64,000 bases of DNA, from the IMG/VR virus record IMGVR_UViG_3300003323_001383. One strand, written 5' to 3'. The DNA comes from a virus. Every line of letters begins with the position of its first letter. The stretch's first letter is position 1. Both the position numbers and the translations under genes were made by a program. Below the pieces are notes generated by a model. It was given only the letters and a program-made list of their open reading frames with translations. It ran no database searches and was not told where the DNA came from. Positions 16,363 through 63,844 of this stretch are shown here, in pieces.

Positions 16363-16719
16363 TCACGACTCCATGACCTCCACCACCAGGTGGAGGTCGT
16401 CCCTCTCCGCCGCGCAGTGCTCGGCCAGGGTCCTCGTCGGGTCGAGCATCAGGTCGCAGGCCGGGCAGAACCGGAAGTCCGCCCCCACGAGGCCGGAGGA
16501 GATTATCCTCTCCGCCTGGCTCGGCGTGTACCTTCCCCAGTACTCGGGGCCGAGGCCCCAGCTGTCCTGGACCTGGACGACGGCTCCCGGCACCCCCGGG
16601 CCGGCTGTCCCGATCTTCGTGGTCACGAACCCTGGCACCGGGGAACCGTACGCCTTTCGATAGGGCGACGGTAGGATGAGGAAGATGCTCGCCTCCGCGC
16701 TCGTCCTGGCGTACCACAC
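16363..16719 (-). CDS. small zinc-ribbon protein with C-terminal VVEVMES tail (VMES family)
   Basis: CPAC...HC motif; ends ...DDLHLVVEVMES; GTG start at 16719 overlaps the divergent + gene, alternative GTG at ~16638. Confidence 0.5.
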   Translation of the reverse strand: MWYARTSAEASIFLILPSPYRKAYGSPVPGFVTTKIGTAGPGVPGAVVQVQDSWGLGPEYWGRYTPSQAERIISSGLVGADFRFCPACDLMLDPTRTLAEHCAAERDDLHLVVEVMES

Positions 16720-17296
16720 GCTGTCCGCTACCGCCCTGGCGCAGGAGCCGGAGCCGTGCCCTCCGCCCTACGCCGTCTGCCTCACCGAGGAGGAGAAGAA
16801 GACGGTCGGGGACTCGCTGCGCGAGCTCAAGGACATCAAGGAGTCGAAGGCCCAGGTCGTCCTGAAGGACGAAATCGTCATCGTCCGGGACTGGGAGGAC
16901 AGGGTCTACATCAACGGCGGCGAGAAGAAGCCGGTCCGGGCGACCCTGACCCTCGGGAAGACGGTCGAGAGGGACCTGGAGATCCGCCTTCCCGTCCAGA
17001 CCTTCTACCGCGAGAAGCCCCCGGAGCCGATGTTCAGGCTCCGCATCCGGGCCCAGGCCGGCGTGCTCGTGCCGTCCGTCCTGAAGGAGTTCAAGAGCGG
17101 GTGGGACGCCGGCGCCGGGTGGGACTTTATGCACCTCGGCCCCGTCAACCTGTCGGCGTACACCGGCATCCGCTCGGTGGGCGGCGGCCTCGGCCTCGAC
17201 CTGACGAAGAACTTCGGCCCCTACGCGGGGTACGCCATCGTGTACGACGGGTGGAAGTCCGCGGCGATGTTCGGCGTCTACTTCAGCCTGAACTAG
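16676..17296 (+). CDS. secreted or outer-membrane-type protein with signal peptide
   Basis: N-terminus MRKMLASALVLAYHTLSATALA/QEP; Tyr/Gly-rich C-terminal part. Confidence 0.6.
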   Translation: MRKMLASALVLAYHTLSATALAQEPEPCPPPYAVCLTEEEKKTVGDSLRELKDIKESKAQVVLKDEIVIVRDWEDRVYINGGEKKPVRATLTLGKTVERDLEIRLPVQTFYREKPPEPMFRLRIRAQAGVLVPSVLKEFKSGWDAGAGWDFMHLGPVNLSAYTGIRSVGGGLGLDLTKNFGPYAGYAIVYDGWKSAAMFGVYFSLN

Positions 17297-17496
17297 ACGG
17301 CGAGCTTCTGGCGGACGGGGGCCGGGAGGTCCTTGACCGCCACGTACCACTCGTCCCCGGTGACGGAGCTCGCCACCACCCTCCCGTCCTCCCTCTTCGT
17401 GTACAGGAGGTCCCCGTGCTCGGCCTCGTTCGGCCCGAGGATGTAGTCGGGGTTGTAGGACGGATGGCTCTGGTCTCCGCCGAACATGTTTGGCAT
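17293..17496 (-). CDS. small hypothetical protein (67 aa)
   Basis: ATG overlaps the stop of the upstream gene (ATGA); the N-terminal 76 aa of track ORF 17293..17724 is Arg/Gly shadow. Confidence 0.4.
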   Translation of the reverse strand: MPNMFGGDQSHPSYNPDYILGPNEAEHGDLLYTKREDGRVVASSVTGDEWYVAVKDLPAPVRQKLAV

Positions 17497-17768
17497 CAGC
17501 TTTCCTTTCGGCCCTCGGCCTCGCGCATGGCGAGCTCGCGCTCGTACCAGTCTTTCTTGGCGCCCTTGTGCACGACCCCGCACATCTTCTCCGCCTTCAT
17601 CCAGTCGCCGAGCGCCTTCCTGGCGTACTCGACGTGTGCGATCTCCTCCGCGGTCGGGAGGCACCGCTCGAGGACCTTCAGGGCGTCCTTCGCGTCGAGC
17701 GAGTCCAGGCCCTGCCGGATGCACCTTCTGACCTCGTCGAGGTCCTCCTTCGTGGCCCGGAGCGTCAT
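17496..17768 (-). CDS. hypothetical protein (90 aa)
   Basis: Member of a five-gene minus-strand operon with 1-4 nt overlaps. Confidence 0.5.
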   Translation of the reverse strand: MTLRATKEDLDEVRRCIRQGLDSLDAKDALKVLERCLPTAEEIAHVEYARKALGDWMKAEKMCGVVHKGAKKDWYERELAMREAEGRKES

Positions 17769-18082
17769 TCCTCGTCCTTTCTGGGCCGCCTCGGCGGCTT
17801 CAGGGGCTTCTCCATCCGCCCGTCCTGCCAGGGGAAGACGACGGGCGGGACGCCGTGCGTCCTGCCCTCGGGCACCAGGCCCGCGCTGTGGAGGTTCTCG
17901 GCCGGGGCCGTCAGGTCGAGCTGCTCGAAGCGGCGGGAGACCCAGTCGGCCTGCTTCTTGGAGAGGGCGGCCCTCGGCTTGAGCTGGAGGAAGTTCGACA
18001 TGTCCTCGAACGCCGTCCTCTCCTTCGCGTCCAGGCGCTCGTCCTCGAGGAGGGCGAGGAGCATACCCCTTTCGCTAGCCAC
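17765..18082 (-). CDS. hypothetical protein (105 aa)
   Basis: ATGA overlap with the downstream gene. Confidence 0.5.
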   Translation of the reverse strand: MASERGMLLALLEDERLDAKERTAFEDMSNFLQLKPRAALSKKQADWVSRRFEQLDLTAPAENLHSAGLVPEGRTHGVPPVVFPWQDGRMEKPLKPPRRPRKDEE

Positions 18083-18395
18083 CGTCCACCCTCCCGACCA
18101 TGGCGTTCATCTCCTTCACGACGGCCTTCTGCTCCTCCCACGAGAGCTTCCTGCTGCCCATGACGTACTGCGAGAGGACGGTCTGCTCCAGCCCGGCGGA
18201 GCGGGCGAGCTCCCCGAGGGGGATGTCCCAGGCGTCGCAGGACAGGCGCAGGAGCTCGGGCGAGCTCTCGGTCGCCCTCGCCTGCCGCGCGAGGTCCGGG
18301 CTGGCAAGGCGCCCGCCCACGGGCTTGACGACGCCGAACCTCCTCAGGATGGTCCTGAGGAGGAACTGCTGGAGGAGCGCCTCCTGGTCCATCAC
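18075..18395 (-). CDS. small helix-turn-helix (XRE-like) DNA-binding protein
   Basis: ELARSAGLEQTVLSQYVMGSRKLS resembles an XRE HTH. Confidence 0.5.
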   Translation of the reverse strand: MMDQEALLQQFLLRTILRRFGVVKPVGGRLASPDLARQARATESSPELLRLSCDAWDIPLGELARSAGLEQTVLSQYVMGSRKLSWEEQKAVVKEMNAMVGRVDGG

Positions 18396-62551: not shown

Positions 62552-62581
62552 TTCTCCATGGCCCTCCTCGGTAGAAGAGGC

Positions 62582-63295
62582 CTACACCATCCCGAGGGCC
62601 GGGCCGAGCGACCGGTTGTACATCGTCCTCACCTGGGAGGCCGTGAGGGCCTTGTTGAAGACGATGGCGGAGGCCATCGCGCTCCCCTTGGTCAGGAAGT
62701 TGAATGGGGACACGCCGATGTCGGACCCGAGGTAGAGCTTGGAGCTCGTGCCGCCGTCCGGGGCCGTGATGCCGACCGAGGTGGCCCCGACCTGCCGCCC
62801 GTTGAGGTAGAAGGTCACCTGCCCGCCCCTTCGCGTGAACCCGTGCTGGCACGGGGTCTGGGTCGGGACCCCCTGGTTGACGTCGAAGTAGAGCTGGTCC
62901 GCCCCGCTCCCGGACTCGCTCAGATAGTTGATCGTGCTCGCGATACCGGTCAGGTACTGGACGTAGCAGGCGTTGTCCGCCTGGGTCTCCCCGTTGGCCG
63001 AGCAGGAGACCATGCACCGGGTCGAGCCCGCCTGGGCCACCATGATGCAGAGGAAGGTCATGTCGCCGACTATCTGGAGGTCGGCGTCCGTCGCGTTGCG
63101 GAAGACGGAGCTCGAGCCGTCGAAGAAGAAGCCGCGCATGCCGGGCAGGAGGTCGGTGTAGCGCTCCGTCCCCGCGGCCACCGTCAGGGGCCTCGACCCG
63201 AAGGTGCTCTCGAGCGTGGAGCCGAGCGTCCAGTGGGCGACCGGCCCGAAGATCTCGGGGTGATAGTTCGCGAGCCCGCGGGTTCCGTAGGACAT
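62582..63295 (-). CDS. concanavalin A-like lectin / LamG-domain protein (237 aa)
   Basis: SKLYLGSDIG...ASAIVFNKALTASQVRTMYN resembles the LamG motif; start chosen to avoid the tRNA. Confidence 0.55.
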   Translation of the reverse strand: MSYGTRGLANYHPEIFGPVAHWTLGSTLESTFGSRPLTVAAGTERYTDLLPGMRGFFFDGSSSVFRNATDADLQIVGDMTFLCIMVAQAGSTRCMVSCSANGETQADNACYVQYLTGIASTINYLSESGSGADQLYFDVNQGVPTQTPCQHGFTRRGGQVTFYLNGRQVGATSVGITAPDGGTSSKLYLGSDIGVSPFNFLTKGSAMASAIVFNKALTASQVRTMYNRSLGPALGMV

Positions 63296-63317
63296 CCGCG
63301 ACGCTACGGGATTAAAG

Positions 63318-63391
63318 GCCGGCGTAGCACTCGGGGAGTGCACCGCCTTCATAAGGCGGCGAGGTCGGTTCGAGTCCGACCGCCGGCACCA
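63318..63391 (+). tRNA. tRNA-Met(CAU) elongator type (or Ile-CAU), CCA encoded
   Basis: Acceptor GCCGGCG/CGCCGGC, AC loop UUCAUAA, T-loop UUCGAGU, genomic CCA. Confidence 0.75.
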
Positions 63392-63394
63392 CCC

Positions 63395-63844
63395 ATGGCA
63401 GACGGGGCTAAAGAAATAGTCTGCCGAGAGTGTACCCTCCTCCCGATGTCCCTCGAGGAGGAGCTGAGGCCGGAGTTCGCCAGGTGCGCCGCCGAGATGG
63501 CGAAGCTCCTGGCCGACCGGGAGGCCCTGGAGGAAGTGCGGAGGCTCCCGTCCCAGTGCAAGGCCTTCACCGCCGTGGACATGGGCGCCCACTACCTCCA
63601 GGTCCAGGTGGGCGCCCTGGCCGACCTCATGGACGGGAGGTCGTCCGCCAAGGCCGACGTGGGCGTCAAGCTCCCGTCGGCGGCCCAGAAGAAGATGATG
63701 GACGAGTTCGAGAGGGACGGGCCGAGGGAGGCCGAGGAGGAGCTCCTCCACGCCCTGTCGGCCTACGTCCGGGCGGGCGCGACCAGGGAGTCCCTCGTGG
63801 CCCTCGTCGACCTCGCCATCGTCAGTCACGTCATGGAGTCGTGA
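63395..63844 (+). CDS. protein with N-terminal CxxC and AIVSHVMES tail (VMES family)
   Basis: ATG 4 nt after the tRNA CCA end. Confidence 0.5.
   Translation: MADGAKEIVCRECTLLPMSLEEELRPEFARCAAEMAKLLADREALEEVRRLPSQCKAFTAVDMGAHYLQVQVGALADLMDGRSSAKADVGVKLPSAAQKKMMDEFERDGPREAEEELLHALSAYVRAGATRESLVALVDLAIVSHVMES

Follow-up and report, generated by a model that had tools for sequence, protein, structure and literature searches.

A C-terminal peptide of about 12 residues, ending in V-M-E-S or a similar sequence and referred to below as the VMES tail, is shared by the products of ten open reading frames (ORFs) in the 64-kb stretch of virus DNA of IMG/VR record IMGVR_UViG_3300003323_001383, the whole of which is called here the window. 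Results of our analysis indicate that the finding of this tail is real, statistically overwhelming and previously undescribed, and that the ten ORFs represent an undescribed, lineage-expanded protein family in a clade of uncultivated huge phages. As to the role of the tail, we favor the reading, to which we assign a probability of roughly 40%, that it is a conserved docking helix carried by fast-diverging proteins. The window itself, with a GC content of 64-72% (about 67% overall), is a fragment of an uncultivated huge phage, since the best GenBank matches of its MVP-like protein belong to uncultivated huge phages of 462-735 kb, and a contig from a root metagenome carries a protein identical to this one.

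A protein family recognizable by its C-terminus

Translation of the ten ORFs gave exactly the coordinates, strands and endings that had been listed for them in the original prediction (Table 1). The C-terminal pattern V-x-x-V-M-x-x occurs in precisely ten ORFs of the window, nine of which end in VM[ED][STEQ]. Nine of the eleven occurrences of the latter motif in the six-frame translation directly precede a stop codon, while about 0.005 terminal occurrences would be expected among approximately 83 called genes, which confirms enrichment over chance. The BLOSUM score of the last eight residues is bimodal (17-25 for the ten tail ORFs vs. 7 for the next best ORF), and therefore the window contains no further members of the family. 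The tail is carried by about 12% of the window genes. The GC content at third codon positions of all ten tail ORFs (0.85-0.95) is typical of real genes in a sequence of 67% GC. In the case of 16363-16719 (-), the codon log-odds score is 41 vs. 26 for the ORF on the opposite strand (16373-16663), and the least secure gene call is that of 53349-53807, with a score of 13.8.

The conservation concerns the protein and not a repeated DNA element, as was originally proposed. The synonymous and stop codons differ both in the window (Val GTC/GTG, Ser TCG/TCA/AGC/AGT, stops TGA/TAA/TAG) and over about 59 tails (Val GTC/GTG/GTT/GTA, Glu GAG/GAA, Ser of the TCN and AGY boxes, and all three stops). It is hardly credible that the motif merely reflects a DNA repeat or a signal in the nucleotide sequence where genes end (for instance, a ribosome-binding site or coupling element of the next gene), although certain features could be read in this way: the sequence GAG GTG ATG GAG resembles GGAGGTGAT, the stops of 38015-38866 and 53349-53807 overlap the start codons of the next genes (ATGA; the former member is followed by a Dam methylase gene), and arrays of tail genes in related contigs are rich in TCATGA and TGATG overlaps. 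Against it, codons vary at every position of the tail, including the use of both Ser boxes and of GAA for Glu, the motif is retained in sequences of between 41% and 68% GC, perfect tails are found before convergent genes (16363 and 30767) or a tRNA, and residues -7 to -12, counted from the C-terminus, are conserved as amino acid classes. The codon variation and the members with convergent neighbors largely refute a Shine-Dalgarno, coupling-signal or DNA-repeat origin.

A search of IMG/VR with a degenerate DNA pattern of the tail returned 23 stretches, about half of which contain in-frame family members, and these cluster in contigs of 360-436 kb, which are very rare, with a GC content of 41-66%. 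Certain loci contain tandem arrays of tail ORFs: 16 in 10 kb of L041 (about 16 of 23 genes), about ten in 11.5 kb of L039, about ten in 7 kb of L050, and nine in 22.5 kb of L055; the share of tail-bearing genes reaches about 70% in some arrays. In the family-bearing loci, 56 of the 59 matches of at least 15 bits, and 41 of the 42 matches of at least 18 bits, are located directly before a stop codon. The tails are also kept on orthologs in a syntenic metagenome contig, L008, whose MVP is 81% identical to that of the window, and in a third relative, L052 (LIVTRVMEE; HVVLEVMET/HVVVEVMET; LVVRDVMET/LVVREVMES; AIVVEVMRS; FVREVMES/FVRDVMGA). The L008 ortholog of 28638-28928, which has a variant ending in the window, ends with IVVEVMRS. 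In L023, a Cys-rich ORF located right after the MVP gene (1958-2218 (+); MVP identity 49%, 60% GC) ends with QVFEVMVS, a diverged tail next to MVP in a further, more distant lineage.

Comparisons with described proteins are consistent with the novelty of the family. Neither Pfam nor PHROGs gave a match to the ten tail proteins of the window, Pfam detected no domain in ten longer relatives, and among GenBank phages neither a DNA match to two tail-rich loci nor a protein related to a typical member was found. A tail profile compared with 5.8 billion and 1.84 billion proteins returned only the proteins of the window, the profile being too short and the word filter too strict.

Table 1. Tail-bearing ORFs of the window and other features referred to in the text
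Position	Strand	Feature	Basis
16363-16719	-	Tail LVVEVMES; CxxC...H-x8-H zinc-finger-like module right before the tail	Translation, codon score
28638-28928	-	Variant tail LVMEVMTR; HxW...CxxC...C module; upstream of HNH endonuclease gene	
29734-29946	-	Tail VIVEVMET; CxxC...H-x8-H module; TAA stop, receiver-domain gene in frame 15 nt later	
30767-31342	+	Tail VVHHVMES; C-terminal Cys-rich module; start may be 30932; convergent with MVP-like gene	
35138-35470	-	Tail FVREVMDS; all-helical body without CxxC	
38015-38866	-	Tail IVTRVMEE; long N-terminal region and C-terminal CxxC...C module; ORF may start upstream, up to 39091	
53349-53807	-	Weakest member, tail VVQEVMEQ; hydrophobic, membrane-like body; 4-nt overlap with each neighboring gene	
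59098-59376	-	Tail TVHEVMES	
61896-62198	+	Tail LVREVMES; typical HxW...CxxC...C module; inside tRNA array	
63395-63844	+	Tail IVSHVMES; helical body, CxxC near N-terminus only; after tRNA-Met	
31343-33976	-	MVP-like gene (Vault_3 repeat and MVP shoulder), context only	Pfam
333-3287	+	Giant protein, 984 aa	Pfam: no match
4103-8743	+	Giant protein, 1546 aa	Pfam: no match
9611-14137	+	Giant protein, 1508 aa	Pfam: no match

The junctions of several tail genes with their neighbors are compact. The member described originally as abutting the MVP stop is indeed 30767-31342 (+), whose stop forms TGATCA with that of the MVP-like gene (-) at 31340-31345. A second zero-gap stop-to-stop pair with TGATCA is formed by 15853-16362 (+) and 16363-16719 (-) at 16360-16365. 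The direct flanking of two members by tRNA genes holds for 63395-63844 and its tRNA-Met, while 61896-62198 is located within the tRNA array and the tRNA-Trp at its stop was called by ARAGORN only. This tRNA-Trp (62197-62267) overlaps the stop of 61896-62198 by 2 nt; like the tRNA-Tyr at 60675-60755, it is an ARAGORN call below the Rfam tRNA gathering score.

Two adjacent tRNAs with the anticodon UUA (ochre suppressors; 34225-34376 (-)) are encoded just upstream of the MVP-like gene, and TAA is the rarest stop codon of the window (8 of 83 genes). The TAA of the member 29734-29946 (29734-29736) is kept in L008 (14104-14122) and L052 (5559-5577), and an in-frame spacer of 15 nt separates it in each of the three sequences from the GTG start of a receiver-domain gene (29332-29718 in the window). 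Since the spacer is in frame, suppression of this stop would fuse the 29734 protein to the receiver domain and bury the tail.

The tail helix and its possible function

An alignment anchored at the C-termini indicates that the conservation spans about 12 residues and fades upstream of position -12. The conserved positions comprise C/D at -12, acidic residues at -11 and -10, L/V/I at -8, V at -7, E/Q/R at -5, V/I at -4, M (rarely H) at -3, E at -2, and S/T/A at -1, which gives a consensus of roughly [C/D]-[D/E]-[E/L]-x-[L/V/I]-V-x-[E/Q/R]-[V/I]-M-E-[S/T/A]-COOH. In the last two positions, Glu is present in 72% and a small residue in 92% of the tails.

The Cys4 zinc ribbon that had been proposed to precede most tails was not confirmed as such: a metal-ligand module is present in most members, and its ligands are His and three Cys, or C2H2-like, rather than four Cys. 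Four conserved metal ligands, including a CxxC knuckle, were found, as in a zinc ribbon or zinc finger. Cys/His ligands are located just before the tail in six to seven of the ten window members; 35138, 53349, and 63395 have no ligands adjoining it. Two subfamilies can be distinguished. In subfamily (a), HxW is followed after 10-25 residues by [W/F]xCxxC and, after another 20-50 residues, by C[D/E]xxxVxxVMES; in 15 sequences C47, C50, and C88 are invariant, and the His of HxW is present in most. Its window members are 61896 and 28638 (His, CxxC, and Cys at -12), and 38015 and 30767, with CxxC plus one later Cys, resemble it. Subfamily (b), with CxxC-x9-12-H-x8-H-x-VVEVMES, is represented in the window by 16363 and 29734. 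The tail helix begins at or just after the last zinc ligand and thus forms, in part, the terminus of a domain. Hence, the original description of the tail as shared by otherwise unrelated proteins has to be narrowed: most members share a small zinc-binding module, while several other body types also carry the tail, namely, the helical hairpin of 35138, the membrane-like body of 53349, the helical body of 63395, and relatives of 140-256 aa without a recognizable domain. Upon removal of the tail, almost no BLAST similarity remains between non-orthologous members.

The AlphaFold2 model of 61896, calculated with six homologs, has a pLDDT (predicted local distance difference test) of 73 and forms a compact beta-beta-beta-alpha-alpha domain of three strands and two helices, in which the tail is predicted with moderate confidence as the last helix (residues 81-90). 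In the model of 35138 the tail is a short helix (residues 102-109) with a pLDDT below 50. A Foldseek comparison of the 61896 model with the PDB gave only generic, weak matches (best E = 0.066), and in a comparison of the family profile with PDB sequences (best E = 0.026) the similarity was limited to the knuckle of zinc-ribbon ribosomal proteins and RNA polymerase subunits.

We infer from these features that the tail docks on a partner. A predicted amphipathic C-terminal helix of about 12 residues, right after which translation stops, is the defining feature of the family. In most members this helix continues from the last ligand of the zinc-binding module and would project 8-11 residues past the metal site, and in a minority it terminates a body that is helical, membrane-like, or long and multi-domain. 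Through tandem arrays and with low identity between orthologs, the bodies diverge fast, while the helix with its exact end is kept. Its hydrophobic face (-8, -7, -4, and -3), together with the acidic, small C-terminus, would bind one shared partner, and many different small "heads" would be brought to the same place or machine. The candidates for such a partner include the virion or its scaffold, the MVP-like shell, an AAA+ unfoldase or protease, and the transcription apparatus. Diverging bodies of several types combined with a constant amphipathic helix, a fixed C-terminus, and conserved last two residues are what would be expected of a common docking element. The idea that the tail is a recognition signal, put forward in the original prediction, gains from the protein-level conservation, the near-strict C-terminal position, the retention in the orthologs of L008 and L052 (tail identity of 75% vs. 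55% for the bodies, with the bodies of some pairs at about 40-45%) and the variety of bodies; we regard it as plausible.

Several observations weigh against a docking function. The tails of orthologs are only moderately better conserved than their bodies. The ortholog of 35138 in L008 (8145-8507 (+)) continues after FDFVREVMES with ten more residues, RPPYVSDVSE. A scan of about 75 window proteins with Pfam detected no peptide-binding domain such as TPR or PDZ. In the commonest subfamily the helix starts at the invariant zinc-ligand Cys, and its hydrophobic face could pack on the sheet and be purely structural; a body-only profile found no tail-less homologs, so that in this subfamily the body always came with the tail. 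Additionally, in the arrays, the preference for Ser followed by TGA may partly stem from the overlaps of TCATGA or TCGTGATG with the next start. As regards the L008 ORF, it is the sole strong non-terminal match seen, and its additional residues could be genuine or could result from a difference in the assembly or in the stop codon.

The main alternative, a serious one although less probable, is that the tail has no targeting role and merely completes, as a structural helix, a single small zinc-binding domain that evolves fast, for instance that of nucleic-acid-binding regulators of early or middle genes. Its conservation would then reflect folding, and the members without Cys would be degenerate or misaligned relatives. 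This explanation is consistent with the three invariant Cys and the His of the alignment, the last Cys being at the start of the tail helix, with the compact predicted domain that includes this helix, with the presence of the tail in every significant match of the body-only profile, with the ligands that precede the tail in six to seven of the ten window members, and with the tandem arrays, which indicate duplication of whole genes. It accounts less well for the conservation of the last two residues and of the exact stop (56 of 59 terminal), which is unusual for the frayed end of a helix, for the extension of the helix by 8-11 residues beyond the last ligand, and for the same tail on the CxxC-less bodies of 35138 and 53349 and on domain-less proteins of 140-256 aa. 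Moreover, sister lineages carry other tails on clearly unrelated folds.

In another reading, the tail could act as a C-terminal degron or unfoldase tag that ensures a short, timed life of the protein by way of an AAA+ machine of the host or phage. The strict terminal position agrees with the requirement of such degrons for a free end, an AAA+ ATPase (39640-41898) and two DnaJ-type proteins are among the gene products of the window, and the small genes of the arrays look like early genes, whose products are presumably often transient. Nevertheless, we find this quite improbable: the last two residues of the tail are acidic and small polar, whereas degrons of the ssrA type have non-polar ends and the tag of the phage's own tmRNA is ANDNSIAAAA, the AAA+ gene is conserved neither near MVP nor in the other tail-bearing loci sampled, and in L120 an AAA+ ATPase itself bears the tail of that lineage.

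The MVP-like gene and the tails of sister lineages

The MVP-like protein of the window has 242 relatives in IMG/VR (40-57% identity), encoded by contigs of up to 500 kb with 22% to 68% GC, and thus its gene belongs to the core genes shared by a large huge-phage clade. Phage MVPs have been reported previously, and their function is unknown (bioRxiv 10.1101/2023.11.10.566534). A conserved MVP operon was considered and rejected, as no gene of the window except MVP recurs across 106 MVP loci. The tails and MVP are both present in the window, L008, L052, and a contig of 436 kb. The last of these is the only one of 77 additional MVP loci with VMES tails within 10 kb of the gene, and no VMES tails were found in LR756500 and LR756501 (MVP 39-44% identical) or in 20 metagenome MVP loci. 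Given that no neighbor recurs and that the tails accompany MVP at one of 77 further loci, their proximity in the window is not evidence of a functional link. The suggestion of the original prediction that the tail loads cargo into the co-encoded MVP shell has thus received no specific support, since there are no conserved neighbors in the 106 loci and no VMES tail at 76 of the 77 further ones.

In a wider sense, the tail might be a sorting signal for a container made by the phage, either the capsid, with co-injection of the sorted proteins, as a C-terminal counterpart of the capsid targeting sequence (CTS) of phage T4, or an MVP-like cage. The internal proteins of T4, diverse anti-defense proteins that share only a targeting peptide, provide a precedent (PMC3012670). 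The co-occurrence of MVP and tails in the window lineage and the 436-kb contig, the location of tail genes less than 1 kb from MVP in three lineages, and the lineage-specific tails of other MVP-encoding phages, which would be expected if signal and receptor co-evolve, point in the same direction. We nevertheless consider such sorting unlikely. The 242 MVP relatives lack conserved gene neighbors, and most of the 76 loci without VMES tails have no recurrent tail of any kind within 10 kb. The sample used for tail-MVP co-occurrence and for sister tails is biased, as the MVP loci compared were all retrieved through MVP. Furthermore, the tail genes of the window are located among replication and transcription genes and not among structural ones, and there is no evidence of cage formation by phage MVP (bioRxiv 10.1101/2023.11.10.566534).

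An unbiased search for recurrent C-termini in other lineages of MVP-encoding phages revealed K[FY]N[ILVM] in L103, L108, L126, and L128/L129, KR[IV]VE[LVS] in L120, and ADDFGFFDN in LR756500 (L001). These tails are carried by proteins of unrelated folds: KR[IV]VE[LVS] by AAA+, SLOG (DprA-like), and DUF3150 proteins, ADDFGFFDN by an LRR protein, and K[FY]N[ILV] by an ankyrin protein. The tails of L120 and LR756500 vary in codons and stops, and a pattern hydrophobic-hydrophobic-acidic-x-COOH fits three of the four tail types. In AT-rich arrays, stop codons and the start codons that follow share nucleotides (ATATGA), and the conservation there may partly be that of the junction DNA. A "TMLLE" cluster of L118 was rejected as a tail family, being a tandem-repeat artifact. 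In the AT-rich loci L001, L103, and L108, many ORFs, including those of ankyrin-neighbor and LRR proteins, begin with MK[YH]IKx[FY]ExF, which we take, as a lead only, to resemble the T4 CTS.

A bolder and rather unlikely extension would be a clade-wide sorting system, in which each lineage has its own C-terminal tag (V-M-E-S in the window, and KR[IV]VE[LVS], K[FY]N[ILV] or ADDFGFFDN elsewhere) and a single conserved receptor of the phage, co-evolving with the tag, recognizes dozens of otherwise unrelated proteins, among them zinc modules and ankyrin, LRR, AAA+, and SLOG proteins. Effectors could in this way be loaded into the capsid or into a cage of MVP resembling a vault, MVP being only one candidate receptor.

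Genomic context and comparison with known systems

The genes that surround the tail genes of the window concern replication and transcription. They include those of a family A DNA polymerase, DnaB helicase, a primase zinc finger, and a SNF2 helicase (Pfam), as well as two sigma-70-type factors, Dam methylase, dCTP deaminase, and HNH and GIY-YIG endonucleases. Chaperone and ATPase functions are represented by a full DnaJ, a second J-domain protein, and the AAA+ ATPase (39640-41898), and two receiver domains are also encoded. The RNA genes comprise a tmRNA, the two tRNAs with the anticodon UUA, and the tRNA array. With the tmRNA (tag ANDNSIAAAA), two PTH2-type peptidyl-tRNA hydrolases, and about ten tRNAs, translation rescue appears to be strongly provisioned (28971-29318 (-), 25455-25844 (-), and 35480-35803 (-)). 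The first 16 kb of the window contain no tail genes and encode three giant proteins, two of whose genes are separated by the gene of the GIY-YIG endonuclease (8788-9573).

Of the hundreds of small genes without known function in huge phages, one large family is now defined by a simple, searchable rule, a helix of 12 residues with which the protein ends. If the tail is a docking or sorting signal, it offers a handle for its partner, by peptide pull-down or complex prediction, it would allow the client or "cargo" set of any such phage to be read from its sequence, and it could possibly serve as a portable tag. The different tails on unrelated folds in sister lineages suggest a general, undescribed organizing principle in this clade. 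Should the helix be purely structural, the result would still be a family of zinc-binding domains that is new and has expanded strikingly. Shared terminal peptides and lineage-expanded small zinc proteins are already known as kinds, and it is the VMES family itself that is undescribed.

Among systems with cargo peptides, the encapsulins were the analogy proposed originally, and the VMES tail is similar to their cargo-loading peptides in being a short C-terminal peptide on different proteins. The encapsulin peptide has a Gly/Ser/Leu-rich consensus and follows a flexible linker. In contrast, the VMES tail (L-V-x-E-V-M-E-S) is predicted to be helical and is contiguous with a zinc ligand, and its distribution is not tied to the MVP-like gene. 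No encapsulin shell of the HK97 fold was found with Pfam among the about 75 window proteins, in which the MVP-like protein is the only shell-like candidate. The cargo of vaults binds to the inside of MVP repeats by means of a folded INT/MINT interaction domain of about 160 residues, while the element shared by the VMES proteins has only about 12 residues, and no domain associated with vaults was detected in the proteins that carry the tail.

The zinc module of the family is similar to zinc ribbons and beta-beta-alpha fingers in that its CxxC knuckle lies on a hairpin and further ligands lie at the start of a helix. It differs from known zinc folds in the ligands, which are His and three Cys, or C2H2 with H-x8-H. 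The long conserved helix that follows the last ligand and has a fixed C-terminus is without counterpart in generic zinc folds, and no significant sequence or fold match was obtained. Degrons of the ssrA type, which are recognized by ClpX/ClpA through a non-polar, LAA-like C-terminal tripeptide, resemble the VMES tails as short peptides at the extreme C-terminus, whereas the latter end with M-E-S/T/A and not with LAA or AAA.

The T4 CTS is located at the N-terminus of the protein, interacts with the scaffolding core, and is cleaved off by the prohead protease. It is a short peptide common to otherwise diverse internal anti-defense proteins that are delivered with DNA (PMC3012670). The VMES family shares with this system the combination of variable bodies with a constant terminal peptide. 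Unlike the CTS, the VMES tail is located at the extreme C-terminus (56 of 59 strong matches), is predicted to be helical, and is often tied to a zinc site. A constant docking motif on variable binders is also characteristic of the poxvirus ankyrin/PRANC and F-box-type adaptors. The VMES family has no sequence relationship to these proteins, and the analogy is architectural only; it consists in the lineage expansion and in the variable parts joined to a constant C-terminal element, which in the sister lineages is carried by ankyrin and LRR proteins.

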